Shown: positions 3,001 to 30,712, numbered from the stretch's first letter. The stretch is 38,144 nt of DNA from a plasmid (NZ_CP072379.1); one strand, 5' to 3'. Notes: generated by a model from the sequence alone, not told the origin. Numbers and translations are program-made.

Positions 3001-4595
3001 GTATTAATTTTCCCTGAATTTTTCACATTATCAGTACTGATATTTTCCGCTTGAACTTCACCTGAATTTTCTGCATTTTTTCCTGACAAGTTACCATTTG
3101 CTAAGACTTTCCCGCTGTTTTTAATATCTTTTGAAACAGCTATATCGCTTCCTGTCTCTACATTTCCACTGTTTTCAAGATTTCCATTGACTGTAATTTT
3201 TCCATTTGACCTAACATCTCCTGAAGTTTCCAAATCATCTGTTGAAATTTTACCTACAGCTGCAATTTCTTTTGCATTTTTCACTTTTTTTGCTTTAAAA
3301 TTTCCTGCAGCAATGATTTTACCATTATTTGAAACATTATCTACCTGAATATTTTTCCCCGAAACTTTTCCAGATGATACAATATTTTTAGCTGTAAAAT
3401 CATCATTTGTCGATATCTCTCCAGTATTTTTTACATCTTTTGTGACCGTAACCTTATTAACTGAAGCCACTGACCCGCTATTATTTAATTTCCCTGAAAT
3501 CTGTGTCGTTTTTGAAACTTGAATTTTTCCTGAATTCGTTAAATCTTTTGTTTTCAAATTTCCATTTGCAAATATTTCAGAATCATTTTCAACATCTGCA
3601 TTCAAGCTAATATTACCATTAGCCTGTGTTTGACCTGCTAATTTTACAGTATTTGCTGTAATATTAATATCCTTGTCAGAACTGGCTATCTCTGATTGCG
3701 AATAATCAGAACCTTTAATTTCAATACCATTTCCCTTAATTTTAGCAACATTAATTTTACCGTCAGCTGTAATTTCCAGCTTTTCATCTTTCGAATAAAT
3801 TAATGCCCTTGAATTTACTCCAGCACCTTTATCTGTACTAATTATTCTAACCTGTCCAGCATACATTGACCCAAGATTACTTGCGTCTATAGCCACTGAA
3901 TTTATCCCACCTTTTGAAGTCACTGCTCCACTATTATCTACAAAATTTTCTCCCAAAGTTACGTCAACCTTGTTTCCGACAAGATTTCCCTGCATTTCCA
4001 AAGCTTTTGCGATAACATTAACATAGTCAGTATTTGTCGCATCAAATCCATTCGCTCCAATTACGACTCTCCCTTTTTCCACATCAATTCCTACAACATC
4101 TCCATCTTTCAGCTTAACTCTTCCTGTTGTCGGTATAAAATTCCTTATATTTATTGTTCCTGCCCCATTTAAGTAAATTCCATTTTCATTAGACAGAATC
4201 ACATTTACCTTATCACGGCTCAATGCTTCAATATATCCCTCAATTTGTGAACGGTTAGCACCGTTTACCTGCAGCAAGATTAAATTTGCAGCCTGATTTG
4301 GACCTAAATTCGGATTTGCATTAATTAGTCCAGCAAGATGGCTTCGTCCCAAATTATCAGCGTTATTAAGCACTTGACCTTCATGTCCAACATTATATTC
4401 CAAAAATTCATTAATACTTACACCCCGATTATTCGGAGTAGAAATATTAATAATTGGCGTTCCATTTGCTGAAGTGTCCAGTTTCGTATTGTGCTGAGAA
4501 TTAGGGTCCAGCACTAAATTTGCCGCGAAAATATTCATATTCATTGATACCAAAAGCAAAAATGCTACTGATTTTTTTAAAATTTTATTCTTCAA
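1..4595 (-). CDS. Two-partner-secretion exoprotein (TpsA; filamentous hemagglutinin/CdiA-like), N-terminal portion. The ORF runs off the left edge of the window and probably continues at 34946..38144 on a circular molecule.
   Basis: The minus-strand frame is open from a TTG start at 4595, preceded by GAAGGAGG, down to position 1. The N-terminus, MKNKILKKSVAFLLLVSMNMNIFAANL, looks like an extended signal peptide. It is followed by a TPS domain (NPNLGPNQAANLILLQVNGANRSQIEGYIE...) and then FHA-type repeats. The gene lies immediately downstream of tpsB on the same strand. Confidence 0.85.
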   Translation of the reverse strand, partial: MKNKILKKSVAFLLLVSMNMNIFAANLVLDPNSQHNTKLDTSANGTPIINISTPNNRGVSINEFLEYNVGHEGQVLNNADNLGRSHLAGLINANPNLGPNQAANLILLQVNGANRSQIEGYIEALSRDKVNVILSNENGIYLNGAGTINIRNFIPTTGRVKLKDGDVVGIDVEKGRVVIGANGFDATNTDYVNVIAKALEMQGNLVGNKVDVTLGENFVDNSGAVTSKGGINSVAIDASNLGSMYAGQVRIISTDKGAGVNSRALIYSKDEKLEITADGKINVAKIKGNGIEIKGSDYSQSEIASSDKDINITANTVKLAGQTQANGNISLNADVENDSEIFANGNLKTKDLTNSGKIQVSKTTQISGKLNNSGSVASVNKVTVTKDVKNTGEISTNDDFTAKNIVSSGKVSGKNIQVDNVSNNGKIIAAGNFKAKKVKNAKEIAAVGKISTDDLETSGDVRSNGKITVNGNLENSGNVETGSDIAVSKDIKNSGKVLANGNLSGKNAENSGEVQAENISTDNVKNSGKINTKDFKSKNVTNTGKVLASGKISADDVDNGGKILTNGRLTAKNVKNSGKIASGDKISSKRLENSGTVATNSDISATDSLVNHNGGNIEGKNVEVKGFELRNAGKISAGNVKAKVNESTNSGQIHSSRDVDLDTQKLTNTGEILAMNDVNSANADVMNNGKVASNNKILFDNSKITNTGEILSGDISMQNAQKFDNTGTIKANNTVLTTTQDINLDGNLHGQQRLIISGRNITNNGNTTGTGLIQITSNDFTNNRDISSDTVIINGQGNIVNNAIITGDNGKISGNDITNNDLIAFEKHLEINAQNKVQNNKDKTIYGGQTLIIKGNDILNDEGEILGGNMDLNAGKIVNNVGTIQATGDILITSSDFQNVGRVSNLDKYEKYYETWDGIKLSENEVNNGWIYKIGKQMSKGKHSNDVLIPQRNWLEKLKNSNLINGYKSYLFTNHYDLIEEKIGEEGNHNDMKTGTVKFPKIALEEKMKSNATTEYGKVLANGNITINSGNVKNKDSIISGGGIVNINASSLENSVTLGNAVQLSNGREEVYVAFHRGHNKVSADTFFKRTLTDDKGNLLKGKIGYEAGQPSIIEGSVVNINAPVITSPITEANGKINNGSVTHGVAGSLFTNAIGKGISSTNGAVNVNLANPNIQIVNNMSSVQAILNTGTISVNPLLTSAMFTQNMNPSSKYLLETRSKYVDLNKYYGSDYFLSRLGYTPSWNRVRRLGDAYYENQLITRALTEQLGTAFINGKSNEDLIKSLMDNAGMESSRLGLQVGKELTPEQISGLSKDLIWYVTQNVNGVEVLVPKIYLSKNTLNTITADGRNKISGVNGTYIKTDNFVNNGMKIGNGGVTYVQANTIKNETATNLLSEITGDKTFIQSVENIENIGGKISGNEAVVLISDNGKVINDTTKRSVGYYNGEFDRTKHEEVNSLGTISSNGTVFVKANSYESTGGMLSADHLALDVNKVNLNALSLSGEDKFGSGGSNFSRYAETTHLGAGVSANS

Positions 4596-4647
4596 ATATA
4601 CGCCTCCTTCTTTTCTGTTATCCTTAGTTTTTTTATCAATCTTTCAA

Positions 4648-6444
4648 TCAAAAAGAAATTTTCAATGCCGTATTAAAATATATTTCCTGCTTTTTCGGAT
4701 TCAAATATTCTGAGTGTGAAATTGGCTTTGCATACCCAAAATTAAAATCTAGATACTTTGTATCCAATCTAATCCCTGCCGTAGCACCTGTCATATATCC
4801 TTTCCCGTATTTTGAACTATCATTGTTGACTCTCACATATCCATAACTGTACCCAAAATATGGTGATACAATTGCTATTTTTTTTATAGGAATATTGTAA
4901 GATATTTCATTTCCAATCTCTATTGCTTTATCCCCTGAAATTGTACTCCTATGATAACCTCCTACACTTCCAACACCTCCTATAGACTGTCTCTCGCTCC
5001 CATAGAGCGTGTCATTTGAAAAAGTTGAATAAATGTTCGCCCTATATACAAAATGCTCTGTCACGGGCTTGTAATAGCTCATATCAAGCGTATACTTATC
5101 AAATTGTGCCTTAGGAGTTGTGCTAAGCTTCCCATCATCTATCTCTGCTCCAAAAATTTTAAGCCCTTTCTCATAACCTAAATTTACTCCAAAAAGTCCC
5201 TTAAACAGAGATGTCGTATAACTAATGTTAGCTGTACCTATTGCCAGCTTTCTATTAGATAAAACTGCTCCTTCCAAGTAATTATCATTATGCTTTCTTT
5301 TAATTCCAATTCCAGCTGTCAACTTACTTTTCTGATTTCTAAAGAGTATTTTATCTAAATTCATAGAAAGCGTATGACTGGAAGTATACAGGTCATAAAC
5401 TGTATTAGATGCATAAAAACTGCTTTCCTGAATACTTTTACTCGAACCTAGTTTCATTGTATAGTCTCTGAATTTCATCGTGTATCCGAAATTAAACATA
5501 TCCATACGCCTTTTATACGGCAGCCAGTCTCCCTTTGATGGATCATACCCAATTGGTCCAATTGGCAATATTTCTCCAGGTTTTAGTTGTTCTGCTCTTT
5601 TCTTCCAGCTTCTGTCAGGCATTTTCTTAGGAACGGTCAAATATGTAAAATATACATTGTCTCCTATCCCTAAAGGACTATCGATACTAAGGCTGACACC
5701 TTTTCTCCAAATACCATCCTGCTTGTTGTCTCCGTAATTATTTGAAATTAAGCTAACAGAATATTTATTTTTAAGAATATTTTTCACTTGAATTTTTGAA
5801 GTATTTTCTTTCTTTCCAGGTAATACCTCCATTGTCATGTTATTTGCCTGTATCGAATTAAAATTTTCTGTAGCCGTGTCTAAATCTCTTATATTGAAGA
5901 TTTCCCCCTTATTTTTCTTAAACATGAAAAACTCCTTTAATTTATCAAGACCATTTTCCGAATTAATTTTAATCTCCTCTATTTTTCCTGGAATAACTGC
6001 CAAATTTAATTTCCCTGTTGTCAGGTCATTATTAGACATAACTGTTACCGTCGAAGTTGTATATCCTTTTACAATTAATTTATTTGTGAATTCTGTTAAA
6101 AGATTTGTGATGTCCGCTGAACTTAATTCTAGATCCTTGTACTTGTCAATGATTCTTGATTTGTCTTTCTTTGACAGTAATCTATTATTGTCTCTTAAAT
6201 TAATTTCAGTAATTAAAAATTTTTTAGAATTGTCAGAAGAAACTATTCCTTTAGCTTCAACATTTGAGCCTTTATCAAATTGCGTATTTTCAAACTCTGA
6301 TTGTTTTTGCTTTTGTTCTATTCTAAGCCTTTCCTGTTCCAACTGTCTTTCTTGGTTATCTAAAATCTTTCTAGCTTCATTTTCAGGAGCTGACATACTT
6401 ATAACAGAAATTAATACTGCTAAAATTACAATAATTTTGTTCAT
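4648..6444 (-). CDS. TpsB-family outer-membrane transporter (ShlB/FhaC/CdiB-like) with a signal peptide and POTRA region
   Basis: A 598-aa ORF with an ATG at 6444 preceded by GGAGGTG. The GTG at 6453 given in the ORF track lies inside the Shine-Dalgarno sequence. A signal peptide MNKIIVILAVLISVISMSAP is followed by POTRA-like and beta-barrel sequence ending in a terminal F, as in ShlB/FhaC-family activators. It sits directly upstream of tpsA. Confidence 0.85.
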   Translation of the reverse strand: MNKIIVILAVLISVISMSAPENEARKILDNQERQLEQERLRIEQKQKQSEFENTQFDKGSNVEAKGIVSSDNSKKFLITEINLRDNNRLLSKKDKSRIIDKYKDLELSSADITNLLTEFTNKLIVKGYTTSTVTVMSNNDLTTGKLNLAVIPGKIEEIKINSENGLDKLKEFFMFKKNKGEIFNIRDLDTATENFNSIQANNMTMEVLPGKKENTSKIQVKNILKNKYSVSLISNNYGDNKQDGIWRKGVSLSIDSPLGIGDNVYFTYLTVPKKMPDRSWKKRAEQLKPGEILPIGPIGYDPSKGDWLPYKRRMDMFNFGYTMKFRDYTMKLGSSKSIQESSFYASNTVYDLYTSSHTLSMNLDKILFRNQKSKLTAGIGIKRKHNDNYLEGAVLSNRKLAIGTANISYTTSLFKGLFGVNLGYEKGLKIFGAEIDDGKLSTTPKAQFDKYTLDMSYYKPVTEHFVYRANIYSTFSNDTLYGSERQSIGGVGSVGGYHRSTISGDKAIEIGNEISYNIPIKKIAIVSPYFGYSYGYVRVNNDSSKYGKGYMTGATAGIRLDTKYLDFNFGYAKPISHSEYLNPKKQEIYFNTALKISF

Positions 6445-7161
6445 CGTTTGCACCTCCTTTCAAAAAATCTATTTTTTTTTTGACTTAGAATAATAACGAA
6501 TTATACAGGAATTTCAAAAAAATGTCAAGCTTTTGATAAAACATAGAAAGAATTGTATCAAAATTTTTAATTTTTAATACAGAACTTCCTTTCAAACATG
6601 CTCTATATCCTTCAAAAAGCGGTCAGATTTAACGAAAAATAGATTTTTGGTATAAATCCTTGGGTAATGGTAAAAGAATGCGTCTATGAGCTTTATTTTG
6701 CCAAATTTTGATTATTGATATAATTCTTTTGAGAATAAGGGAACTTTTTATAATAAAAAATATTAAAAACTACATTTTGGGAATTAAAGACTACAAGATT
6801 CATATAATGTAGTTTTATTTATTTTAAATTTTATTTTTTTATATAGAGGGGCTTTTTTATATACCATTTTTATATATTACTCTTTTAATATACCTTTTTA
6901 GATGGTCGCAAACACTTGTGAATACTGGTTTTGAATACATTAAAAAACAAGAAAATCAGTAATTAAAAACAAGTTTTTCAGTAGATTAAAAACAAGCACT
7001 TGTTGGGAATTATAATATTGATTAAATATCATAAAAAATATAATGATATTTAATATATCTATTCTTTTTAAAAAAGTTTTAAAATTTTTTATATTTTAAA
7101 ACTTTTTTAAAGTTTTTCCCCCCTCGGAAAGCACTATAAAATATGGCATAGAGTATATTTT

Positions 7162-7306
7162 AAAATAACAAAAAGTCTGTATTAAATAACAAAAAGTCTG
7201 TATTAAATAACAAAAAGTCTGTTATTAAATAACAAAAAGTCTGTTATTAAATAACAAAAAGTCTGTTATTAAATAACAAAAAGTCTGTATTAAATAACAA
7301 AAAATA
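7162..7306. repeat. Iteron array for rep1: six tandem copies plus one partial copy of a 21-22 bp unit, taaataacaaaaagtctgt(t)at
   Basis: Direct tandem repeats are seen 60-200 bp upstream of the rep1 start. An AT-rich palindromic stretch precedes them at 7061-7110 (aaaagttttaaaatttttt...tttaaaacttttttaaag) and ttaaaaacaag is repeated three times at 6940-7000. This is the classic layout of an iteron-type theta origin. Confidence 0.8.
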
Positions 7307-7371
7307 TAAAAAGATATGTATTTTTGATATTTTGTATGATATAATATAGAAAAAATAAGGATGTGTAAAAA

Positions 7372-8412
7372 ATGAATAAAATTGTAAAATTTCATAATGA
7401 TTTGAACAGTATTAAATTTTCTTCTTTTAGAGCTGTTGAATACGATCTTTTTTTTGCTATTTTATATAAATTAAAAGATAAACAGGAAGAAGAGATTATA
7501 TTGACTTTTGAAGAATTAAAAAAACTTTCTGAATATAAAAAAACTCAAAATAAATATTTTATAGATTCACTAATAGAAATAAATCAAAATTTATTATCTA
7601 TCAAATTAAACTTCAAAAATTATACTGAAGGACTTTATATTGGAGCTACTTTTTTTACTTATTACGAAATAAATGAACAAGAAAAAACTTTATCAATTTC
7701 AGTAAATCGGAAATTGACTTATTTAATTAACGATTTAACAAAAAATTTTACTCAATTAGAATTAAAGAAAATGTCTCAAATGAGTAGTAAATATTCAAAA
7801 ATAATTTTTCGATTTTTGAAACAGTATGATAATACTAAAAATAATACTAATTTTTGGGAAATTGAAATAAATGAGTTTAAAGAGTTGTTAAATATTCCTT
7901 CTTCGTATTTAATGGCAAATATTGATACTAGAATTTTAAAACCTGCATTATCAGAGTTATCTCCTCTTTTTTATAATTTAAAACTTATTAAAAAGAAAAG
8001 GGGGCGAAAGATAGATCGTTTAAGATTTGAATGGAATACAGAAACTGTTGAAATGAAAAAAAAGAAGGAAAATGAACCAAAAAAATCAGAAGTTGAATCA
8101 AAAAGAAAATACAAAATCATAGAAAATACTCCTAAAGTAGAAGAAAAAGAGAAAACTTTAAGTGAACAAATTAAAGAAGAACTTGAGATGGAACAAGAAG
8201 CTTTAAATAGAAGTACCACTTTATTAGGAGCATATATTGCTGGATTAAAAGATGTAACAAATAACTCAATTATAATCGATTCTAAAAGACGTATAAACTT
8301 GAGAAAAGAGAAAATTGAAAAATTGGAACAATTTTCTAATTTGGCTGATGACGAAATTGATGAGAGTTTGGAAAAAGTGATACAGAAAGTATTGGAGATG
8401 GAGATTAAGTAG
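7372..8412 (+). CDS. rep: Plasmid replication initiator, Rep_3 (RepB/RepA iteron-binding) family
   Basis: A 346-aa ORF with an AAGGATG Shine-Dalgarno sequence. The N-terminus, FHNDLNSIKFSSFRAVEYDLFFAILYKLKD, matches my recollection of the Rep_3 N-terminal region. The C-terminus is Lys/Glu-rich. The gene is preceded by an iteron array. Confidence 0.8.
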   Translation: MNKIVKFHNDLNSIKFSSFRAVEYDLFFAILYKLKDKQEEEIILTFEELKKLSEYKKTQNKYFIDSLIEINQNLLSIKLNFKNYTEGLYIGATFFTYYEINEQEKTLSISVNRKLTYLINDLTKNFTQLELKKMSQMSSKYSKIIFRFLKQYDNTKNNTNFWEIEINEFKELLNIPSSYLMANIDTRILKPALSELSPLFYNLKLIKKKRGRKIDRLRFEWNTETVEMKKKKENEPKKSEVESKRKYKIIENTPKVEEKEKTLSEQIKEELEMEQEALNRSTTLLGAYIAGLKDVTNNSIIIDSKRRINLRKEKIEKLEQFSNLADDEIDESLEKVIQKVLEMEIK

Positions 8413-8435
8413 TATTTTTTGTGTGTTTGAGGGAA

Positions 8436-8513
8436 TTTAAAAACAGGATGATAAAACTACCATCCTGTACCATATATTATATTTTGAGTTTACACAAAAT
8501 TCTGGACACTCTC
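8436..8513 (+). repeat. Junction element: hairpin (caggatg-N10-catcctg, 8444-8467) followed by a 28-bp unit gagtttacacaaaattctggacactctc (8486-8513)
   Basis: Seen directly in the sequence. The hairpin also recurs at 28387-28410. The 28-bp unit recurs at 9128-9155, 9156-9183 and 34114-34141. Its 13-bp core tttacacaaaatt recurs at 13369-13381 (reverse complement), 13412-13424, 15692-15704 and 25099-25111. Confidence 0.7.
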
Positions 8514-8536
8514 TTTTTACTATTACCACTTATTTT

Positions 8537-8800
8537 TTATTTATCTCCATAATGAGAACCACATTGAACAATTTTTATAATCCCATCTTCAATTTTATAA
8601 ACAATCCTGTTCCCAGCATCTATTCTTCTGCTCCAATATCCACTAAAATCATATTTCAGAGCTTCCGGTTTGCCAATTCCTGTATAGCCATTTCTATCAA
8701 TATCTTTTATAAGTTCCAAGATTCTTTTAAAAACTTTTTTATCATTTTTTGCCCAGTATTGAAATTCTTCCCATGCTTCATCAGTCCACGATTTAATCAT
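8537..8800 (-). CDS. yoeB: Type II toxin of the YoeB/Txe family
   Basis: The sequence MIKSWTDEAWEEFQYWAKNDKKVFKRILELIKDIDRNGYTGIGKPEALKYDFSGYWSRRIDAGNRIVYKIEDGIIKIVQCGSHY aligns almost along its whole length with my recollection of E. coli YoeB. It overlaps the upstream antitoxin ORF by 8 bp. The ORF-track start at 8845 is probably spurious. Confidence 0.8.
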   Translation of the reverse strand: MIKSWTDEAWEEFQYWAKNDKKVFKRILELIKDIDRNGYTGIGKPEALKYDFSGYWSRRIDAGNRIVYKIEDGIIKIVQCGSHYGDK

Positions 8801-9047
8801 AATCGACCTCATGAACCGTTCCACCTGTTTTTTCCATTTGCTCAATAGATTTTTTTAATCTTTCAATATTTTTTGGACTATAAAAAGGATCTGAATCTAA
8901 TTCAAATGGCATTCTTCTTTCACGAGTGAATTTTTTTGCAAAAATATTAAATGCTGTCCCTATTGAAATTCCTATGTCCTCACAAATTTTTTCCATTTCT
9001 TTCTTTGTATCTTTATCTATTCTAAAATTAACAACAACTTTTTCCAT
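8793..9047 (-). CDS. Antitoxin with a RelB/DinJ-like ribbon-helix-helix N-terminus and a YefM/Axe-like C-terminal tail
   Basis: An 84-aa ORF. NFRIDKDTKKEMEKICEDIGISIGTAFNIFAKKFTRERRMPFEL resembles the DinJ/RelB ribbon-helix-helix fold. The C-terminal SPKNIERLKKSIEQMEKTGGTVHE resembles the YefM C-terminal toxin-binding region. It is translationally coupled to yoeB. Confidence 0.65.
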   Translation of the reverse strand: MEKVVVNFRIDKDTKKEMEKICEDIGISIGTAFNIFAKKFTRERRMPFELDSDPFYSPKNIERLKKSIEQMEKTGGTVHEVDYD

Positions 9048-9127
9048 ATAACATCAATTCCTTTCGTTTGATATAATTATTATATCATTTGAAATTATTT
9101 TGTCAATATATTTAATAATATTTTTTT

Positions 9128-9183
9128 GAGTTTACACAAAATTCTGGACACTCTCGAGTTTGCACAAAATTATGGACTCTCTC
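9128..9183 (+). repeat. Two tandem 28-bp junction units (gagtttacacaaaattctggacactctc followed by gagtttgcacaaaattatggactctctc)
   Basis: Direct tandem copies of the 8486-8513 unit. Together with that copy they bracket the yoeB/antitoxin cassette in direct orientation. Confidence 0.7.
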
Positions 9184-9915
9184 TTAATATATTTTAAATT
9201 TTTCGCTCATCCTTTTAAAATTTCTTTCTTGAATATCATTGTATTTTTCAAAAAAGTCTTTTGGTAATTCATCTTTAAATAATTTTAATAATTCTTTATA
9301 TAATCTTCGTTCTTCTATACTAAGAGAATAAGAGCTTTTTGAAATTATTTTCTTAGAAGTAAATATCGTTACTTCATCTAAAGAAGTAGGACTCATATAT
9401 GCTCCTCTTTCATTGCTCAGATCTATAGAAGTTAATAAATTTAGAATTATTGAAGAATATTTGTTTTTAGAATCCATTACACTTTTCACGTATTTTTTTT
9501 CTTGTTTTTCGCCATTTTCATCAAATGAAAACCAGTGTAATTCTACTTGTTTACTATTTTTTTTTATAATCCATTTCCCGTATCCGTAGTTCTCATCTGG
9601 GGATACATCGTATTTATGTTTCTTATTGAAAGAACTATAATAATTGTCAATATTTTCTAAAGTAAAACATTTTAAAACTTTTTCTTTTACTAGTGATTCC
9701 ATAGAATCTATTTTAGATTTTAGTGGAAACAATTTAAAATAAAAAACTAATTCATCTTCGTTCTCTTTATTCAAAATATATCCATAGCCTTCAGAAGGTT
9801 CTGGTGGTTCTCCTCTAAAAAAATCATAGTAACTCAAGCTATTCAAATACATAGATTGCCAAGAATAGCTCACATTTCCAAATACTAAAAATAAAATCAC
9901 TATTAGTTTTTTCAT
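9184..9915 (-). CDS. Secreted hypothetical protein (signal peptide, no lipobox Cys)
   Basis: A 243-aa ORF with an N-terminal MKKLIVILFLVFGNVSYS signal-like segment. The rest of the protein is Lys/Tyr/Asp-rich and I do not recognise a family. Confidence 0.5.
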   Translation of the reverse strand: MKKLIVILFLVFGNVSYSWQSMYLNSLSYYDFFRGEPPEPSEGYGYILNKENEDELVFYFKLFPLKSKIDSMESLVKEKVLKCFTLENIDNYYSSFNKKHKYDVSPDENYGYGKWIIKKNSKQVELHWFSFDENGEKQEKKYVKSVMDSKNKYSSIILNLLTSIDLSNERGAYMSPTSLDEVTIFTSKKIISKSSYSLSIEERRLYKELLKLFKDELPKDFFEKYNDIQERNFKRMSEKFKIY

Positions 9916-10182
9916 TATTTATCATCCTTTTTGATTTCCAAAATTTTTAATCCGTTAAATTCTATGGTTTCTCCTATTTTCATTTTTTCAAAACCTTTAT
10001 GTTTTTTATTAATTTTTTCTATAATATTTAACGGAGTTCCTTTATATCCTTTTTCTAATGCTGTTATAAAATTATCAGATTTAGAAACATAAAAAATCTA
10101 TTAATATTTCTTTCTTCTGCTTGTCTTACACCTTCAAAGCTTTTATACCAATTTTTATCAACATCTAATTGGAGTGTCCCCA

Positions 10183-10440
10183 AAAATTTAGACTATTTTT
10201 TTAAGCAATTTTTTCATTTTTTTTCTTTATGCTTTCTTCGTATTCATTTGGACTTGTAAATCCTATTTTACTGTGGATCCTGCTATTATTATACCATATT
10301 TCTATATACTCGTATATTCCAGTTCTTAAATTTTCTAAATTTTCACTATGTACATATTCTTTTTTCAATGTTGTATGGAATGATTCCATGTAGACATTAT
10401 CATAAGGATTCCCTTTTCTGCTATAAGATATGGAGTGTAC
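10183..10440 (-). mobile_element. Truncated IS remnant (IS3-like rve transposase C-terminus plus terminal repeat tggagtgtccccaaaaatttagacta)
   Basis: The ORF 10201..10389 encodes ...ESFHTTLKKEYVHSENLENLRTGIYEYIEIWYNNSRIHSKIGFTSPNEYEE, a typical OrfB C-terminus of the IS3 family. The terminal roughly 80 bp, including the 26-bp end sequence, recur at 30713-30790. There is no DDE core or orfA, so the element is truncated. A second IR-like sequence, tggagtgtacctaaaagtttgac, at 10432 in the same orientation marks the truncation point. Confidence 0.65.
10201..10389 (-). pseudogene. IS3-family transposase OrfB, C-terminal fragment only
   Basis: A 62-aa fragment covering the C-terminal end of the rve integrase core. 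Confidence 0.65.
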
Positions 10441-10607
10441 CTAAAAGTTTGACTTTTTGGTATAAAAAAGGGCTCAAATCGATTGTAAATGGTCTTAAAA
10501 TTGAAATGAGATTTTTTGATTGAATTTTAGGAAAAGAAGTGGTATACTATGGGTAAGAAAAAACCATTAGCGTGGAAAATATAAATTGCAGAAAACAGAC
10601 TCTCTTC

Positions 10608-10637
10608 TTGAAGCAGGGTCTTTTTTTATGTTATAAT
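10608..10637 (+). promoter_or_regulatory. Candidate sigma70 promoter: TTGAAG, 17-bp spacer, TGtTATAAT
   Basis: The -35 box TTGAAG is at 10608-10613. A 17-nt spacer precedes an extended -10 box TGTTATAAT ending at 10637. It lies about 45 nt upstream of the strong Shine-Dalgarno sequence GGGGGGTGA of the small ORF at 10691. The -35 box lies within the loop of an upstream hairpin (10597-10621). Confidence 0.4.
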
Positions 10638-10690
10638 ATTTCGTCAAGAATGCAAACTTGGCAAATTCACGCTAATGGGGGGTGAGATAA

Positions 10691-10756
10691 ATGTTTTATG
10701 ATTTGACGGTTCTAGTAGCAATAATCGTAGTATCTTTGATTATTAGCAAACGATAG
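10691..10756 (+). CDS. 21-aa hydrophobic peptide MFYDLTVLVAIIVVSLIISKR, a candidate type I toxin-like membrane peptide
   Basis: The ORF is too short for the ORF track. It has a strong Shine-Dalgarno sequence, ggggggtgagataaATG. The peptide has a single transmembrane helix and a basic C-terminus. A promoter lies upstream and an intrinsic terminator immediately downstream. Confidence 0.35.
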   Translation: MFYDLTVLVAIIVVSLIISKR

Positions 10757-10784
10757 TTGAATCATCATCGGCACCCGAATATGT

Positions 10785-10822
10785 CTGTCAGTTGAAATAT
10801 ACTGGCAGATTTTTATATCTTT
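10785..10822 (+). terminator. Rho-independent terminator (ctgtcag-N10-ctggcag then atttttatatctttt)
   Basis: A 7-bp stem with one G-U pair is followed by a T-rich tract, 29 nt after the stop of the small ORF. Confidence 0.45.
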
Positions 10823-10958
10823 TAGGTGTCCGCAACAATGCATAAATAAATGAATAGAAGACACTATAAGGGTACTTTGATTTTGACGAGTAACCTTAAA
10901 TTGTGTTATAATTAATTTATCAAAGTTATTATATCGTTTTTCTTTTCAAAGAATAATA

Positions 10959-11915
10959 TTAAATTTCATACTTCCTAAACCAATTTTCAAAATGCTGAAA
11001 ATTACTAAATTTAAAATTTTGTAAATGGTTATCATCTACATTTTTAACAGTTACAATTAATTCCTCATTAATTTCTTTAAAATTAATGATATTTAAATAA
11101 TTATATCTCTCAAATACTTTATCTTTCATTTTTATTTTTCGATTTATATAATTAATAGCTTTTTCAGGATTGTTTACTTTAAATTCTTTTTCTAGAATAT
11201 TTCCACAAATCTCCCTAAATTCTTTTTTTGTTTCCTTTTTACCAGATTTTTTAAATCTAAACTCATAACCTGAAACTTTACTTCTTCCTCGTCCTAAAGA
11301 ATTCTTATATTTTTTGATAACTTTTAAATTAAATTCTTCTCCGAGTTCGTTCATTATTGGTTTCAAAATTTTGCTATCAATCTTGTCTGTTTTATAACTT
11401 TGTGGAATATCTAATAAGTACTTAAATTCTTCAATACTAACAATCCAAATTCCTGTGTATCTAAACTGTTTCATTCTTCGATAAAATTCTTTTGTATAAG
11501 TAGACTTAAAATTCACAAATTCTTCTAATTCAAATCTTGTAAAATTTGATGTTAATTCATTTAAGACATACTTAAATTCTTCATTTATTCCAATTGTAAC
11601 AATTTGTTTTTCAACATTAATTGTATATTTTGTAAATAAAACGAACCGAGTCCATTCAACATCATCACCTATACGAATATTGCATTTTAAAAGCTTGTTG
11701 TAAGCACTGTCTAGCGTATTTACAAAATTCTTCATATCATTGTAAGGATATTTAATTAATTTTTTCAAATACTTAAAATCAAATTCTACATACTTTAAAC
11801 CTTGGTCTCTAATTCTGCTACAAATTGATATTAATAAATTAATTTCTGTGGAATTGAATTTTCTTAATGCTACTGTATTCATATCATTATTAAATTTTAC
11901 AACTTCATTAGCCAT
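10959..11915 (-). CDS. rep: Second plasmid replication initiator, Rep_3 family
   Basis: An ATG at 11915 follows GGAGGTTTGT. The N-terminus is MANEVVKFNNDMNTVALRKFNSTEINLLISICSRIRDQGLKYVEFDF. Overall it resembles rep1 and the Rep_3 architecture. An iteron array lies immediately upstream at 12025-12152. Confidence 0.8.
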   Translation of the reverse strand: MANEVVKFNNDMNTVALRKFNSTEINLLISICSRIRDQGLKYVEFDFKYLKKLIKYPYNDMKNFVNTLDSAYNKLLKCNIRIGDDVEWTRFVLFTKYTINVEKQIVTIGINEEFKYVLNELTSNFTRFELEEFVNFKSTYTKEFYRRMKQFRYTGIWIVSIEEFKYLLDIPQSYKTDKIDSKILKPIMNELGEEFNLKVIKKYKNSLGRGRSKVSGYEFRFKKSGKKETKKEFREICGNILEKEFKVNNPEKAINYINRKIKMKDKVFERYNYLNIINFKEINEELIVTVKNVDDNHLQNFKFSNFQHFENWFRKYEI

Positions 11916-12024
11916 ACAAACCTCCAAATTTTATTTTTAAATCCTAAATTAGTAAATTCGTTTTAATTATACACCCAAAAAAATAATTTTTCAACCCTTA
12001 GGGTTAAAAATGGTGATTTTCATG

Positions 12025-12152
12025 TTATTTTTGGGTGGTTTAATTAATTAAGCTTTGTTGTTTTTGGGTGGTTTATTTGTTATTTTTGGGTGGTTTAATC
12101 AATAAAATTTTGTTATTTTTGGGTGGTTTATTGTTATTTTTGGGTGGTTTAA
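12025..12152. repeat. Iteron array for rep2: five copies of ttatttttgggtggttta with alternating spacing of about 22 and 34 bp
   Basis: Direct repeats are seen upstream of rep2. A small perfect inverted repeat, aaccct-t-agggtt, lies at 11993-12005. Confidence 0.8.
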
Positions 12153-12783
12153 TAATACTCTAGACAAGTAAAAATGCGGTTTGTAGAGTACCTAAAAGTA
12201 TAAAAAAAGAGTATATATATAAAAGGTATAATAAAATAGGTTCTATTTTTTAAATAAAAAAAACTCAAAAGTATTTTCAACCCCAAAATAACCAAAATTT
12301 GAAATAAATAAAATAACCCTATTTCAATCAAAAATATAATTCCCTGACTCCCAAAATGTAGTTTTTAATATTTTTGTAACAAAAAAGTATCTTTACTGCT
12401 TATTACTTTTTACAATTCACTATTTTCCATTTTCAAAAAAATTTTACTTCTCCTTTTTATTGATTTTACTTAATGAAAATGCTATAATAAATATACCATA
12501 GTGGAAAAAGATCCATAGATGTATACAAAATAAAAACATAAAAATAAGGAGAGTAACAACTCTCCTTTTGTTATTTCCAAGTTTCTCCAATTATAATAAT
12601 TATTGTTTGTAAAATTACTATAACCAAGATTTTTATCCATAACTTTTCCATAGATGTATAATCTCCTTTCTTTCAAGGATTATTAAAATTATATCATTCT
12701 TTTCTCTATTTTAAAAAATAAAGCTATTGTATTGATAATATATTGAAATATTGATACAATAAACAAAAAAGGAGATGATTACT

Positions 12784-13044
12784 ATGACAAATGCAAGTTT
12801 GAACATCAGACTAGACAAAGAAACAAAAGACAAAGCAAATGAACTATTTAATAAATTCGGAATAAGTATGACTACTGCTGTAGTTATGTTTTTAAGAACA
12901 GCAATTAGGGAAAATAGAATTCCTTTTGAGTTAAAATTAAACGAACCTAGTAATATAACGCTTCAAGCCATTGAAGAAGGAAGAAGAATAGCAAATGATG
13001 GTTACGATAACATAAAGGAGTTGAGAGAGGCACTTGGCGTATAA
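12784..13044 (+). CDS. relB: RelB/DinJ-family antitoxin
   Basis: MTNASLNIRLDKETKDKANELFNKFGISMTTAVVMFLRTAIRENRIPFEL is ribbon-helix-helix DinJ/RelB-like. The second ATG, at 12784, has proper Shine-Dalgarno spacing after AAGGAG. A toxin reading frame follows immediately downstream. Confidence 0.75.
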   Translation: MTNASLNIRLDKETKDKANELFNKFGISMTTAVVMFLRTAIRENRIPFELKLNEPSNITLQAIEEGRRIANDGYDNIKELREALGV

Positions 13045-13310
13045 AGTTAAATTTACAGGACAATTCAAAAAAGATTTAAAATTAGCAAAAAAACAAAGGA
13101 AAAGATCTTGATAAATTGTTTAATGTGATAGAAATATTAGAAAAAGGAGAAAAACTCGAAAAAAAGTATAAAGACCATAGTTTATCAGGAGAATATAAAG
13201 GAACAAGAGAATGCCATATTGAACCTGACTGGTTACTAGTTTATGAAATAATGAACGATGTATTAATACTTATGCTATAGCGATTAGGTTCACATTCTGA
13301 ACTATTTTAA
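13034..13310 (+). pseudogene. yafQ: YafQ/RelE-family toxin, inactivated by a frameshift in an A-run near 13100 and an in-frame TAG at 13278
   Basis: Frame 1 reads YKVKFTGQFKKDLKLAKKQRK and then stops. The next frame reads DLDKLFNVIEILEKGEKLEKKYKDHSLSGEYKGTRECHIEPDWLLVYEIMNDVLILML, then TAG, then RLGSHSELF and a stop. Joined across the frameshift this gives a YafQ-like protein. There is no clean ATG start. Confidence 0.6.
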
Positions 13311-13360: not shown

Positions 13361-13439
13361 GATTTAATTTTGTGTAAACTAATAGATGAATTCAGTATTT
13401 CGCTATTCTATTTACATAAAATTTACGCATCCATTTAAA
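13361..13439. repeat. Junction element: core tttacacaaaatt in reverse orientation (13369-13381) next to a hairpin gatgat-N6-atcatc, plus a second motif tatttcgctattctatttacataaaatttacgcatccatttaaa (13396-13439)
   Basis: The second motif recurs at 15677-15714 (tacttcgctattctatttacacaaaatt...) and 25094-25130 (ctattttacataaaattttttacgcacccatataaaa). Confidence 0.6.
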
Positions 13440-13579
13440 CCCCTATATAGTTGCTTTGCACCGCTTGATACTTTATATTATCAATATATTTTTTTCTGCT
13501 ATTTTATTCAAATGTTTTTCTTTTTTTATAACTAATTAAAGTAAAATATGTTGTAATTTTCATACCTTTACTTAAACCT

Positions 13580-15244
13580 TTATTTATAAGCAACTTTCAC
13601 TTCTTTCCCATGAAATGCAATCCCAATCTTCAAGATATTTTTTATCCCTCTTGCCTTTAGTTTAGTATCATATTTCTTCTCATCAATCTGTTTCAATGCC
13701 TTCTGTGCTCTCTCTTCCATCCCCTTTTTCGTCTTCGATATTTTAAATTCCATAAGGTAAGCTTTCTCGTTACTTTTTATTGGAATCATGGCAAGATCAT
13801 ATCTTCCGTATCCACTTTCATCATTCGAAATAATTTCATATTTCCCCATTAAAAATCCTACAAGCCCTATCATAAACACTTGGTATATTTTTTCCATTTC
13901 CTTGTCCAAGTCAAAAAAGCTCAGCATATTTATCATTATTTCTCCTAATGTTTCCTCAAATTTCTTGATATCTTCATTCTCAAGAGCCTTTATCAAAACA
14001 CTAGTTTTCACTTCTGTTCCAAAAAATCTGTTTAAAAACATATTACCAAAATATTTCCGTATTTCCTTATTTGGAATTCTCAAGTTATAAACATCTGTAT
14101 ATTCTGAAGTTACATCTATTTCCTTCTGTTTTTCATCTTTTGTCAAATATCCACTATATAAAAGTAATTGCCATATTTCATCATTATTATTTAAAAGACT
14201 TTTTATCGTAGTTCCATCAGAAATATATTTTTCAATGCTTTCCCCATCGGTAAATCGTTTTAAATCATCATAAACACTTTCTCCAGCATGATCAAGCATA
14301 TTTTCTAGAAGTGTATTCCCTGAAACATTTGCCCAATATGCCTTGATTTCTTTTTCTCTTACATAATTTACAATAGACCAAGGATTGTATACTTTACTTT
14401 CTCCAAAAATATATCCGTTATACCATTCTCTAACTTCTTCAATTTTGTATTTCATGTCAAAATACTCAAGCATTTCAATTACTTCATTTTCAAGAAGTCC
14501 AAAATATTCTGAATAATCCTTGCTTAAAATCGTATTTACATAAAGATTATTTAAACCAGAGAATATCCCTTCTTTTATGATTCTAGTTATTCCTGTTAAA
14601 ATACCATATTTTAACGAATTATTAGTCTTTAACGCTGAACTATAAAATGTTTGAAAAAAATTTATTGCTTCATTGTAGTATCCTTTATCAAAAGCATTTA
14701 TTATTGGAGCGTCGTATTCATCTATTAAAATTATGACTTTTTTTTCATAATACCTATAAAGACTATCTGCCAAAAATTTTAAAGACATTATGTAGTCTGC
14801 ATCTTCTTTTTCATAAAGCACTTTTTCAAATTTTTTTTTATCCCATTCATTCATTTTTTCTCTAATATACTCAAATTCAACGTATAAATCAAAAATAAAT
14901 AACTTCAATCTTTTTAAACATTCTTCCCAAGTGTCTCCTTTTAAATCCTTCAGTGAAATAAAAATTACAGGGTATTTTCCCTGTTCACTCATATATTCAC
15001 TATCAGATACTTTCAAATTTTCAAAAAGTTTTTTATTTTCTTCTTTATCTTCTACATCAAAAAAATATTTCAACATCGACATATTCAATGTTTTTCCAAA
15101 TCTACGTGGTCTTGTAAATAATGTAACTTTCGATTTATTCATTAACATTTCGTCTATTAATAAAGTTTTATCTACGTAATAATATTCATCTTGTATCAAC
15201 TCTTTAAAATCTTCAATTCCCACAGGAATAGCTTTTTTTCTCAT
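13580..15244 (-). CDS. AAA-ATPase-like protein with a C-terminal PD-(D/E)XK nuclease-like domain, of the 'predicted AAA-ATPase' family common in Fusobacteria and Bacteroidetes
   Basis: A 554-aa ORF. The N-terminus is MRKKAIPVGIEDFKELIQDEYYYVDKTLLIDEML...FTRPRRFGKTLNMSMLKYFF, with a Walker-A-like RPRRFGKT motif. In the C-terminal third, GYGRYDLAMIP...EKAYLMEFKISKT looks like a PD-(D/E)XK-like motif. Its C-terminal 153 aa and 3' flank are duplicated at 30187-30710. A 30-bp copy of its 3' end lies at 33970-33998. Confidence 0.75.
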   Translation of the reverse strand: MRKKAIPVGIEDFKELIQDEYYYVDKTLLIDEMLMNKSKVTLFTRPRRFGKTLNMSMLKYFFDVEDKEENKKLFENLKVSDSEYMSEQGKYPVIFISLKDLKGDTWEECLKRLKLFIFDLYVEFEYIREKMNEWDKKKFEKVLYEKEDADYIMSLKFLADSLYRYYEKKVIILIDEYDAPIINAFDKGYYNEAINFFQTFYSSALKTNNSLKYGILTGITRIIKEGIFSGLNNLYVNTILSKDYSEYFGLLENEVIEMLEYFDMKYKIEEVREWYNGYIFGESKVYNPWSIVNYVREKEIKAYWANVSGNTLLENMLDHAGESVYDDLKRFTDGESIEKYISDGTTIKSLLNNNDEIWQLLLYSGYLTKDEKQKEIDVTSEYTDVYNLRIPNKEIRKYFGNMFLNRFFGTEVKTSVLIKALENEDIKKFEETLGEIMINMLSFFDLDKEMEKIYQVFMIGLVGFLMGKYEIISNDESGYGRYDLAMIPIKSNEKAYLMEFKISKTKKGMEERAQKALKQIDEKKYDTKLKARGIKNILKIGIAFHGKEVKVAYK

Positions 15245-15384
15245 AAAATCACGCCCTCTTTTATTTTAAATTTCAATATATTAATTATACCATAACCTGA
15301 TATTTAAAATAAAGTCATTTGAACGCTCTGTGACGCTTTTTTTAGTTTTTTGACTAATTAATTACATTTTATTTTAAAAGCTCT

Positions 15385-15480
15385 TGAAACTGTATCTTTA
15401 CTTGTCTAGAGAATTATTAAGTCACCCAAAAATAACATAAAAATCATCATTTTTAAGCCTAAAGGTTGAAATTCTTAAAG
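15385..15480 (-). repeat. Orphan inverted partial copy of the rep2 origin segment (RC of about 11985-12170 with the iterons collapsed to one)
   Basis: ctttacttgtctagagaattattaagtcacccaaaaataacataaaaatcatcatttttaagcctaaaggttgaa is the reverse complement of catttttacttgtctagagtattattaaaccacccaaaaataaca...aatcaccatttttaaccctaagggttgaa around rep2. Confidence 0.65.
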
Positions 15481-15587
15481 ACACCTACTCGATAGAAAAA
15501 ATCTATAAAGTACTAGTTTTATTTTTAGGTATCTTCAAGTACTGATAAATAAAGGGATAAATTGTATAAAAGGGGGAGATGTTGTAA

Positions 15588-15628
15588 CAAAAGAGGGGAA
15601 GATCCGTTATTTACTTTCCCCTTTTTGA
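15588..15628 (-). terminator. Bidirectional intrinsic terminator (aggggaag...cttcccct stem with T/A runs on both sides) downstream of the LacI-family gene
   Basis: GC-rich stem gaggggaag-loop-ctttcccct followed by ttttt on the + strand and ttttg on the - strand. It lies between the AAA-ATPase start and the lacI-like stop. Confidence 0.45.
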
Positions 15629-15676
15629 GAGTGTACAGAATTTTGTATAAATTAATAGAAAATATAGTAAATTTAA

Positions 15677-15734: not shown

Positions 15735-16742
15735 TTATATTTTTTGACAACTTTCTCTTTCTATTAATTCAATAGGTAGAAAAACTTTCTTATGATAGTC
15801 TCTTCTACCTTCTAATAATTCAACTAAAGAATTTACTGTTTCTTGAGCTATTAATTTTGTATCTATTTTTATAGTTGTCAAAGGTGGTGTATAATATTTT
15901 GATAATTTTAAATTGTTAAATCCTATTATTGATATATCTTCTGGAATTCTTAGTTTATTTTCTCTAATTGCTTTGTATGCTCCCATTGCTATTGAATCAT
16001 TTCCACAAAAAATTGCTGTTGGTCTATCTTCTAATTCTAAAATTTCTTTCATCATTGAATAACCACTTTCTGTAGAAAAGTCTCCAATTTTTACATATTC
16101 TTCATTGTATAACCCTTCTTTTAGCATTATTTCTTTAAAGTATTTTTCACGAAAATCTACTAAATTTTTTACTACTTTATTCCTTCCTACTAGTAACCCT
16201 ATTTTTTTATGATTTAGTTTTAGAATATAGTTTATAACTATTTCTACTGAGTTTTTTGTATCAAATTTTATGTAATCTATGAAATTATCTGTATCGTATA
16301 CATCTACACAAATAATATTTTTATTTAATTCTTTAAAGAATTTCAATTTTTCTTTACTTACTTCACCTATAAAAATAATTGCATCTGTAAAAGAAAAAAT
16401 TGATATCTCATTTGATTTTATCATTTTTTTTATGTCGTCTAAATTAAAAAATTTTATTTTTGAAAAAATCCTTTTTAAATTATTTTCTAAATTTATTTTT
16501 AAAGATACGAAATATGGATCATCACTTTCAATTTTTTTATCAAAACATTTTATTATTGAAATATTAGATTGTGATATTTTACTTTTATTTCTTTTTTTTA
16601 CGTAATTTAGTTGTTTTACAGCTTCTAGAACTTTCTCTTTTGTAAAAGCACTAACTTCGAAACTTTCATCATTATTTAAAATTCTCGAAACTGTTGTTAT
16701 AGAAACTCCTGCTTTTTTTGCAACTTCTCTAATTGTAGCCAT
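15735..16742 (-). CDS. LacI/GalR-family transcriptional regulator
   Basis: A 335-aa ORF. The N-terminal helix-turn-helix MATIREVAKKAGVSITTVSRILNN is typical of the LacI family and is followed by a periplasmic-binding-protein-like effector domain. It is the last gene of the minus-strand lac cluster. Confidence 0.8.
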   Translation of the reverse strand: MATIREVAKKAGVSITTVSRILNNDESFEVSAFTKEKVLEAVKQLNYVKKRNKSKISQSNISIIKCFDKKIESDDPYFVSLKINLENNLKRIFSKIKFFNLDDIKKMIKSNEISIFSFTDAIIFIGEVSKEKLKFFKELNKNIICVDVYDTDNFIDYIKFDTKNSVEIVINYILKLNHKKIGLLVGRNKVVKNLVDFREKYFKEIMLKEGLYNEEYVKIGDFSTESGYSMMKEILELEDRPTAIFCGNDSIAMGAYKAIRENKLRIPEDISIIGFNNLKLSKYYTPPLTTIKIDTKLIAQETVNSLVELLEGRRDYHKKVFLPIELIERESCQKI

Positions 16743-16813
16743 TTTTCTCCTTTTTATTAAAAAATTTTACTGTAAAAAGGGGATAACTAAAACTATCCCC
16801 TAAAAAAACTCTA

Positions 16814-18259
<1,446 letters not shown>

Positions 18260-18279
18260 TTAGTATTAAAATACATTAA

Positions 18280-19983
18280 TTAATCTTGAAATTGTTTTTG
18301 TACAAAATCTAATGCACCTTTACCATCACGAGTCAATTTAATATACTGAGCTCCTTCAGTTTTAGCTAATTTAATTCCTAATTTATCAGTTTCTGCTTTC
18401 ATATCTTCAAAATTTGATGCAACTTGTGGTGCAAGAATAACTAAATCAAATTCAGGAAGTATTTCACGATGTGCACCATACCCACCTGCTGCAGCTTTAA
18501 CAGGAACATTAAATTCTTTTGCTGCTTTATTTAAAGCGTTAGCTAGAAGTCCACTTGTTCCTCCACCGGCACACAATACAAGTACATTTGTTTCTTTTGT
18601 TATATTATTTTTAACAGCCTCAGTTTTTTCAACACCAGCTTTTTTAAGAATATTATCTGCTTTTTCAGTATTAAAGTTAGCAGCTACTTTATCTTTTAAT
18701 TCGTTATTTGTAGTTCCTAGACGTTCTTCTTCAAGAATTTGTTTATCGTATACTTTTATGAATGGATAATAAATAATAAAGTCCACAACTACTAAAAGTG
18801 CCGCTAAAACAAATGATAATATTTGAAGATTTGTTCCCAATATTATTCCCAATGGTCCTGGAGTTGTCCATGGAAGGTTAGCAGTAAAGCTGTTCATTCC
18901 AAGCACATCTATAAATATTTTAAAAATCCAAACATTTACTATTGGTGCAAAGATAAATGGTATAAAGAATACTGGATTTAATACAATTGGAGCACCAAAT
19001 AAAAGTGGTTCATTTACACCAAAGAATGTAGGTACTACAGAAGCACGTCCAATAGCTTTATTTCTCTTAGATTTACAAATCCACATAAACATAAATGGCA
19101 CTATTAAAGTTGCTCCAGTTCCTCCCATTGTAACTATAAACATTTGTGTTCCTGAAGTTAAGATTTTATCCGCATGTTGTCCAGCTCTCATAAGATTTAA
19201 GTTTGCATCTATATTAGCATAAGTAACAACTGCAATAGCTGGTTCTACAATTGAAGGTCCATGAATTCCAACAAACCAGAAGAACGCAAAAGCTCCAAAG
19301 ATAATAGTAATTCCTACATATCCATCGGCTGCTGAGAATAATGGCCCAAAAAGTTTACCTACTGCTTCTGCAACTCCTGTACCAATAAAATGACGTACAA
19401 GAATGTCAAGAACGTAAAGTGATACAACTGATAAAGTAAATGGTATTACATCTTTAAAAACTTGTGAAATATTAGGTGGAACTTCTGAAGGCATTTTAAT
19501 AGTTACTTCATTTTTTATACAAAATTTATAAATAGTTACAGTTATAAATGATGCTAAAAATGCAGTTAAAAGTCCTTTTGTCCCCAAGAATCCAGTTGAA
19601 AATCCATCTTTAGTGGGATCTGCTGCTAACAATAACAAACCAACCATCGAAGCTAAAAGTGTAGAAATATAATTAACTTGATTAGTTGCTGGCATAGAAC
19701 GATTTACAGAATCTGTTAAAGATTTAGCTGTTGTTCCAGCTACTAAAAATGCTAAAATTCCCATAGAATAGCTGTATGGTTTCATTAATAAAGCTTCTAT
19801 ACTTTTTGGCCAAAAAAATCCAAAAGCATTTGGAACATAAGCAATTAAGATAAAAATACTAGAAAATAATATAACGGGCATCCCAGCTATAAAACCATCC
19901 CGAATCGCTCTTAAATATATATTCCGAGATAATTTTTCAAAAAAAGGTTTCCCTTTTTCTATAAATTCAATCAGTTTTTCCAT
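18280..19983 (-). CDS. lacE: PTS lactose-specific EIICB component
   Basis: A 567-aa polytopic membrane protein with a C-terminal IIB domain ([23 protein letters not shown]). Its start overlaps the lacF stop (TAATG). Confidence 0.9.
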
Positions 19984-20300: not shown

Positions 20301-20440
20301 AGTGATTTTCTCCTTTTCAATTATTATTTGGTTATTTATACGTATTTGCAAAATACAATTGTTTTTATTTGTAACAAGGGGTAGACTCCCCTTGCTAATA
20401 CTACTGTTTAATTTTTTTATTACATATAATTTATATTATT

Positions 20441-21418: not shown

Positions 21419-21654
21419 GTTTTTTTCCTCCTAAAAATATTAATAGTTTTGTTAATACTTGTATTTTGTTAAATATTATTTTTATATACAGTCATTATTT
21501 CAGTACTCTGAACTTTAATTTGTTTTCCAGCTTTCAGAAATTTTTTTAATTTATTAGCTTTTTTATTTGTGAAGGAATTCAATCATATTTTTTAAATTTT
21601 GAAAGCTGGAAGCAATTTTTAATAACTATAGTATCTTCACTAAAAAAATTTTGA

Positions 21655-30699: not shown

Positions 30700-30712
30700 A
30701 TTACCAAAATAT

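Follow-up and report, generated by a model that had tools for sequence, protein, structure and literature searches.

A Leptotrichia plasmid with two intact and distinct Rep_3 replication modules, and signs of rep module exchange among its relatives

The sequence analysed in this study (plasmid NZ_CP072379.1; the whole stretch of 38,144 bp is hereafter called the window) is a complete circular plasmid with a G+C content of ~25% whose host is an uncultured oral-type Leptotrichia. Our analysis of its replication region (7162–12152) gave good support to the view that the plasmid is genuinely multi-replicon and carries two intact Rep_3 modules, rep1 and rep2. Overall, it is probably best explained as a complete plasmid with two iteron-type Rep_3 theta replicons of different specificity that was built, and rebuilt, by the exchange of rep modules and not by one datable fusion event.

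The first module, rep1, and its surroundings comprised the following features:
7372–8412, plus strand: rep1, coding for a Rep_3 initiator of 346 amino acids (aa); winged-helix domains WH1 and WH2 at codons 1–221 and a type-A C-terminal tail at codons ~215–346
7163–7306, plus strand: rep1 iteron array of six exact 16-mer cores and one partial unit
7000–7125, no strand assigned: AT-rich stretch on the far side of the rep1 iterons (GC 10% over 7000–7099), a candidate DNA-unwinding region
8443–8468, no strand assigned: hairpin 3' of rep1, scored in the scan as terminator-like on the minus strand, where the T-run lies
6760–6782, plus strand: 23-nt box ATATTAAAAACTACATTTTGGGA, about 600 bp upstream of rep1, with an identical copy upstream of rep2

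Rep1 matched the full Pfam profile Rep3_N (positions 1–141; E 9e-22, 78.3 bits against a cut-off of 22.4) and also the full length of Rep3_C (E 8e-14, 52.1 bits against a cut-off of 21.1). Six exact copies of the iteron ATAACAAAAAGTCTGT were located at 7165–7288 with spacings of 21, 21, 22, 22 and 22 bp, followed by the partial seventh unit at about 7291–7306, and Tandem Repeats Finder described the same array with a period of 22, 6.5 copies and a score of 261. The motif returned no match in 100 shuffles of the window. These cores are directly repeated and helix-phased, and are positioned 84–209 bp upstream of the start codon. Between the partial seventh iteron and rep1 a TGnTATAAT element was read by eye at about 7340–7348, and the hairpin downstream of the gene was read as the rep1 terminator by position only.

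The second module, rep2, is encoded on the opposite strand:
10959–11915, minus strand: rep2, coding for a Rep_3 initiator of 318 aa with WH1, WH2 and a type-B C-terminal tail (ending FENWFRKYEI)
12023–12151, plus strand: rep2 iteron array of five 20-mers
11994–11966, minus strand: best promoter-like site of rep2, TTGAAA-17-TATAAT (11/12)
12349–12371, minus strand: the other copy of the 23-nt box, situated about 435 bp upstream of rep2

Rep2 starts at an ATG seven bases after GGAGG and matched the full length of both Rep3_N (E 2e-24, 87.0 bits against 22.4) and Rep3_C (E 2e-8, 35.0 bits against 21.1). Its iteron TGTTATTTTTGGGTGGTTTA was present in five copies, four exact and one with a single mismatch, that are directly repeated at spacings of 33, 22, 33 and 21 bp, lie 108–236 bp upstream of the start codon and were likewise without a match in 100 shuffles of the window. 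On the far side of this array the GC content fell to 17% at 12200–12299. At the rep2 promoter match, an iteron-like sequence that is inverted and imperfect (TTATTTTTTTGGGTGTA) runs across the spacer and −10 element and a palindrome at 11988–12010 overlaps the −35 hexamer; the two together are a candidate autoregulatory operator. Each 23-nt box sits within a stretch of ~150 nt, the rep1 and rep2 versions of which share about 75% identity, and the box was found upstream of the rep modules in all close relatives. An RNA hairpin was considered for this box and rejected, as its second arm was not conserved upstream of rep2 and the sequence instead resembled the iterons of a third Rep type, repB of an L. 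wadei plasmid.

Comparison of the two modules indicated that they are distinct. Rep1 and Rep2 shared 35% aa identity over the 216 alignable residues of WH1–WH2, their C-terminal tails could not be aligned (24%) and their iterons were unrelated in sequence. Leptotrichia Reps at 45–49% identity were the nearest reference relatives of Rep2, and those of Rep1 were all below 42%. By protein identity, Rep1 and Rep2 belong to different clades under any typing threshold. Both protein lengths fell within the range of their homologues (308–357 aa), and both modules had an AT-rich region next to the iterons, judged by composition alone against about 25% GC overall. A first-pass annotation of the window had proposed two complete Rep_3 modules with unrelated iterons on a multi-replicon plasmid, and each part of this proposal was upheld with minor adjustments of coordinates, as both genes are of full length with both Rep_3 domains and both iteron sets, six units at 21–22 bp and five 20-mers, are absent from shuffled sequence.

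Exact Rep1 was found on seven contigs and exact Rep2 on contigs in 71 index blocks. Every contig of sufficient length showed the same order of a rep1 slot, a YoeB/RelB toxin/antitoxin module, an open reading frame (ORF) of 243 aa without a family match and rep2. The rep1 slot contained an identical Rep1 in three samples, a 344-aa allele in four, two further full rep genes in one and a frameshifted rep1 in one; in other words, intact alleles of other kinds occupied the slot in five samples beyond the three with identical Rep1 and Rep2 proteins. These contigs also bear on whether the arrangement was created by a metagenomic assembly that wrongly joined two plasmids through shared repeats. The plasmid does have many internal repeats on which such an error could occur, but the order of rep1, toxin/antitoxin, 243-aa ORF and rep2 was recovered in independent assemblies from at least eight samples and with different assemblers, and reference plasmids from cultured strains share the multi-rep layout. 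As the order recurs across contigs of independent samples, the arrangement is not an assembly chimera, and we regard an artefact of this kind as extremely improbable.

Differences among relatives in the rep1 slot were concentrated in a single segment:
7126–8014, plus strand: specificity cassette containing the iterons, the promoter and rep1 codons 1–214 (WH1–WH2)

When positions 6301–9300 were compared with one relative (L010), identity was 88–100% in each 50-nt interval except within 7126–8014, where it dropped to 56–86% (the counterpart in L010 is approximately 13928–14790). The L010 rep1 allele, which is 75% identical, has a different six-unit iteron of its own, and the ratio of non-synonymous to synonymous substitution (dN/dS) over the replaced codons 1–214 was 0.34. 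Four N-domain types with 36–62% aa identity were distinguished in total, each accompanied by its own array of six 21–22 bp iteron units and each joined to tails that were 82–98% identical. A second tail type, ending FENWFRKY, was shared by Rep2 and the reference Leptotrichia Reps. The rep genes are thus two-part mosaics in which the WH2/tail junction is a recurrent crossover point. A variable specificity cassette (iterons, promoter and WH1–WH2) is flanked on one side by an upstream origin region and on the other by a block of tail, terminator and 28-bp site of recombination type, both of which are conserved.

The number of rep genes is in keeping with the genus. Among seven Leptotrichia plasmids in PLSDB with a Rep2 homologue, six had Rep_3 sequences in two to three places, including pJMUB3934p1 (NZ_AP019836.1) with three annotated full rep genes and JCM16776p1 (NZ_AP019828.1) with two and a fragment. 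Like the plasmid analysed here, these two carry a ShlB/FhaB pair, ParA, Mob and many toxin/antitoxin pairs, and their Reps, to which Rep2 is 49% identical, have type-B tails. Unlike it, they have other iterons and lack a lactose/tagatose operon, and their nucleotide homology to 6900–12400 is limited to YoeB/RelB, the remnant of an insertion sequence (IS) and a rep segment of about 100 nt. For Leptotrichia plasmids it is the norm to carry more than one Rep_3 gene together with stray fragments, and the arrangement is ordinary.

Several observations weigh against two working replicons. A sequence search of the PDB gave Rep1 only weak matches to F RepE structures (E about 1e-3) and gave Rep2 no match, no sigma-70-like promoter match was scored for rep1, and the DnaA box TTATCCACA was not found with up to one mismatch in 6700–7372 or 11915–12400, nor was it enriched across the window. 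DnaA boxes are present in many, though not all, iteron plasmid origins. In addition, the second set of contigs was selected by exact identity to Rep2, and the constancy of rep2 in that set is consequently a product of its construction. Finally, rep1 in one relative (L012) has lost one nucleotide from an A8 run and has three iterons fewer, which may mean that rep1 is dispensable. The run lies at 8049–8056 in the window, just past the WH2 domain, and its shortening to A7 in L012 causes a frameshift with loss of the tail; this difference is either an assembly error or the mark of a slippage-prone site. L012 was considered as natural proof of dispensability and then downgraded, because a change in a homopolymer run and one in a tandem array are both typical of short-read assembly errors.

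In an alternative reading only one replicon, most likely rep2, drives replication, with the other Rep_3 gene carried as a passenger that is silent, decaying or non-replicative and serves, for example, in the exclusion of competitors. The wider occurrence of exact Rep2 (71 collection blocks in comparison to seven contigs for exact Rep1), its presence alongside several rep1-slot alleles and the L012 lesions would all suit such a passenger. However, the rep1-slot alleles are all of full length and under purifying selection, as the dN/dS value above indicates, and all of them retain six iteron units whose sequence changes together with that of the DNA-binding domain, a pattern that is hard to explain without selection for origin function, while the L012 lesions lie in a homopolymer and a tandem repeat, where assemblies fail. 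A passenger rep1 is accordingly rated as unlikely, and purifying selection together with Rep–iteron co-variation argue that rep1-type modules are in use.

For the preferred reading of two replicons, we infer that both origins fire and that they do not cross-react. The mechanism by which Rep proteins act on iterons is established for Rep_3 and iteron plasmids, e.g. F RepE, R6K pi and pPS10 RepA. By analogy, each Rep would bind only its own directly repeated iterons through two winged-helix domains, and binding would open the adjacent AT-rich stretch and recruit the host replisome, while each Rep would repress its own promoter through an iteron-like operator. Interference between the two origins is not expected because their iteron sets and DNA-binding domains are unrelated, and the plasmid would then have redundant initiation and would tolerate a co-resident plasmid that shares one of its replicon types.

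Besides cassette replacement in the rep1 slot, the changes seen among relatives were module swaps at 28-bp sites of recombination type, which are listed here with the associated genes:
8486–8513, plus strand: 28-bp imperfect palindrome (11-6-11), GAGTTTACACA-AAATTC-TGGACACTCTC, at the 3' boundary of the rep1 module
9128–9183, plus strand: two tandem 28-bp sites, a recurrent synteny breakpoint (9155 in three relatives)
15627–15654, minus strand: 28-bp site
34114–34141, plus strand: 28-bp site located ~290 bp 5' of the recombinase gene, at which homology with two relatives ends
8537–9047, minus strand: YoeB toxin/RelB antitoxin module, bracketed by two sets of 28-bp sites
33187–33828, minus strand: gene for a short Xer-like tyrosine recombinase of 213 aa, the candidate enzyme for the 28-bp sites

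The five copies in the window, with none expected by chance, read GAGTTTACACA-AAATTC-TG(G/T)ACACTCTC. In the TGTACA variant we counted, by eye, 7 matching positions out of 11 between the arms. The first site lies 74 bp past the rep1 stop codon, after the terminator-like hairpin. In relatives a 28-bp site was found downstream of every rep gene with a type-A tail, and sites were noted in L002, L011 and L020–L022. Homology with relatives ended at 8510–8516 (three loci), 9127/9155 (four loci) and 34141–34147 (two loci), and the sites make up 0.4% of the plasmid. An L. shahii plasmid possesses the toxin/antitoxin module without the 28-bp sites, and its homology to the window stops at the inner edges of the sites. 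A half-site relic was also observed behind a copy of the rep1 terminator hairpin at 28372–28433.

Multi-replicon Rep_3 plasmids of Acinetobacter offer a parallel, in which short Xer-type sites (pdif/dif) bound exchangeable modules such as toxin/antitoxin pairs (PMC11705084, PMC9927589, PMC13141974) and mediate the cointegration of co-resident Rep_3 plasmids (PMC11705084, PMC13141974). The 28-bp 11-6-11 sites described here similarly bound a toxin/antitoxin module and rep 3' ends, and breaks in synteny fall exactly on them. The systems differ in that XerC/XerD sites have a conserved ATAA-spacer-TTAT motif (PMC11705084) that is not matched here, where ACA precedes the spacer and TGG or TGT follows it. 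Further differences are the host, which belongs to the Fusobacteriota, the direct orientation of the sites flanking the toxin/antitoxin module, and a short Xer-like recombinase encoded by the plasmid itself, which may act at the 28-bp sites. These elements might together amount to dedicated replicon switching, where the Rep_3 cassette (iterons and the WH1–WH2 half) is exchanged between a constant origin region and a constant block of tail, terminator and site while the plasmid-encoded recombinase shuffles whole modules at the 28-bp sites, a scheme that we put forward tentatively.

Remains of further rep modules were found elsewhere on the plasmid:
27890–28309, plus strand: rep2-type pseudogene, tail only (codons about 194–318) with 43 nt of 3' flank
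15381–15471, plus strand: rep2-type origin relic with the distal flank, one iteron (15418–15437, two mismatches) and the proximal flank, not followed by a rep gene
13428–13442, plus strand: partial rep2-type iteron ATTTAAACCC at the left edge of the block 13443–15423

The third rep copy aligned over 423 nt to the 3' end of rep2 at 93.6% identity, and no usable start codon was found at its 5' end. A truncated rep2-like copy of 112 codons had been predicted previously; the copy is real but slightly longer, as tblastn recovered rep2 codons 202–318 (117 codons, 95.7% aa identity) and the 43 nt of 3' flank. It begins at the WH2/tail junction, the same position as the crossover in the rep mosaics, and meets the mob upstream region at an A-rich microhomology (27898–27925). 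Among relatives, L022 has a full rep2 module near the mob gene on the same side, L030 keeps the tail fragment with a longer rep2-type 3' flank that extends up to an IS remnant, and in others this breakpoint (27925) is occupied by a Fic gene. The third copy is best read as the residue of a once-complete module of rep2 type, the rest of which was lost in a deletion ending at the WH2/tail junction.

The origin relic at 15381–15471, which holds a sixth, inverted rep2-type iteron, and the partial iteron at 13428–13442 are observations additional to the first-pass annotation. The origin relic shares 85–89% identity with the rep2 origin and lies in the opposite orientation to rep2; it shows that rep modules were repeatedly gained and lost. 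The block at 13443–15423, of AAA-ATPase_like/PDDEXK_9 type, is absent in L011 and L019, and iteron-like sequences of rep2 type border it. Its 3' end recurs in truncated form at 30177–30712 (92–95% identical). We considered that the origin relic and the tail fragment at 27890–28309 might represent opposite ends of a single rep gene that the lac–mob segment has divided. Their common orientation on either side of that segment fits this idea, but L022 has the relic immediately downstream of an entire rep2, and among relatives each of the two junctions varies independently of the other. A further segment, 15571–15625, has weak similarity to the origin of a 58%-identical rep1 homologue in L021, in its last iteron and proximal flank, and is possibly the relic of a fourth replicon type.

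The remaining question for the origin of the plasmid is the role of two IS3-family remnants:
10168–10425, minus strand: IS3-family right-end remnant with a terminal repeat near 10172 and the last 62 transposase codons
30713–30969, minus strand: another right-end remnant of an IS3-family element, oriented like the first

The first remnant, which had been noted previously as an IS remnant between rep1 and rep2, was assigned to its family by an ORF at 10201–10389 (minus strand) that encodes 62 aa from the C-terminus of an IS3-family transposase (rve_2, E 6e-12). The two remnants are ~90% identical by our own estimate from the alignment, and only over ~100 nt at the IS end; neither is complete. 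They could record a classical cointegrate, in which a plasmid with rep1, parA, the recombinase and FhaC/FhaB fused through IS3-family copies, since decayed, with a plasmid that carried rep2, mob and the lactose/tagatose genes. Such an origin would account for two related right-end remnants in the same orientation that cut the circle into two arcs with one intact rep each, and for the two toxin/antitoxin pairs of the plasmid, and in S. aureus, according to a preprint (bioRxiv 10.64898/2026.01.09.696371), it is common for multireplicon plasmids to show fusion with subsequent deletion. Against this, similarity between the remnants is confined to the IS end and identity in the transposase portions is 44%, the first remnant is a component of the 3' flank of rep2 and is found with the rep2-type fragment in L030, and differences among relatives map elsewhere (7126/8014, the 28-bp sites and 27925). 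Moreover, no relative with just one arc was present among 40 contigs carrying Rep2 or Mob.

The division of the circle by the IS3 remnants is consequently weak evidence for fusion, and we consider an IS3-mediated cointegrate improbable, while a one-step fusion of two single-replicon plasmids is possible. An earlier suggestion of fusion of at least two replicons followed by decay was retained in part, as the third copy is a decayed rep2-type module while a single fusion at the IS remnant was not established. The proposed comparison of synteny with single-replicon relatives found no counterpart, as neither a single-replicon nor a single-arc relative occurred among the contigs retrieved through Rep1, Rep2 or Mob, a sample that is limited and biased. 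Exchange of rep modules, in preference to one datable fusion, appears to have built the structure and to be rebuilding it still.

Two further features bear on the window as a whole:
34949–38144 joined to 1–4643, minus strand: FhaB-like exoprotein, a 2,613-codon frame that spans the junction
4648–6453: FhaC-like transporter, upstream of the FhaB-like frame

The window represents a whole circle because its two ends are contiguous in a contig of a relative (L021, 8575/8576) and because closing it yields the single FhaB-like frame, which runs from 4643 across the junction to 34949. The closest database records for the window were Leptotrichia plasmids, and a genome scan found rep1 at 97% aa identity in a metagenome-assembled genome labelled uncultured Leptotrichia sp., of which L021 is a contig. 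The remaining gene content includes a RelB/YafQ pair, an AAA-ATPase/PD-(D/E)XK gene, a MobV-type relaxase, ParA and the short Xer-like recombinase. In the YafQ toxin gene the 5' part (13035–13115) contains stop codons in the window and is intact in relative L003, and the toxin may be inactivated here. An operon for a lactose phosphotransferase system and the tagatose-6-phosphate pathway (15735–24760, minus strand) adjoins the MobV-type relaxase and codes for a LacI-type regulator, a GH1 phospho-beta-galactosidase, EIICB, EIIA, LacD, LacC, LacB, LacA and a DeoR regulator. The segment 28500–29150, which separates the rep2-type fragment from a Cons_hypoth698 gene, has the look of a gene in decay, as it contains numerous short frames but none that reaches 70 aa. 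An Rfam scan of the whole window gave no family match, and hence no sign of antisense-RNA copy control. Cumulative GC skew, tried as an indicator of the active origin, dropped almost monotonically and was uninformative given that nearly all genes lie on one strand.

Comparison with better known multi-replicon and Rep_3 plasmids places these findings in context. In IncF plasmids (FIA/FIB/FII), one replicon can diverge or decay while another maintains the plasmid; IncF mixes replicon types, including the antisense-RNA-controlled FII, whereas all modules here are iteron-type Rep_3. The Rep_3 theta plasmids of lactococci and enterococci (pCI305/pWV02-like) have 22-bp iterons upstream of rep, and co-variation of Rep and iterons allows many compatible members to share a cell. 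Reps from Staphylococcus, Carnobacterium and Enterococcus have 40–47% identity to the Rep1 and Rep2 N-domains, and the differences from the pCI305/pWV02-like plasmids are C-terminal tails specific to Leptotrichiaceae and the presence of several replicons on one molecule.

Although Leptotrichia is a genus commonly found in the mouth and the one from which Cas13a comes, its plasmids are essentially undescribed, and our literature search found no paper on Leptotrichia plasmid replication nor a relevant one on pdif in Fusobacteria. The plasmid is an ordinary and well-formed example of a known architecture in this little-studied genus and does not overturn current understanding, and its side findings, the replacement of specificity cassettes and the dif-like module boundaries, are modestly interesting. 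Carrying several Rep_3 replicons emerges as the normal state in Leptotrichia, and the two compact, well-delimited modules of origin and rep could serve as replicons for Fusobacteriota shuttle vectors. The joint replacement of Rep and its iterons on an otherwise identical backbone offers a clean natural example that bears on how plasmids escape incompatibility, and replicon switching, if true, would represent a pdif-like module system outside Acinetobacter that changes the incompatibility group on a fixed backbone.

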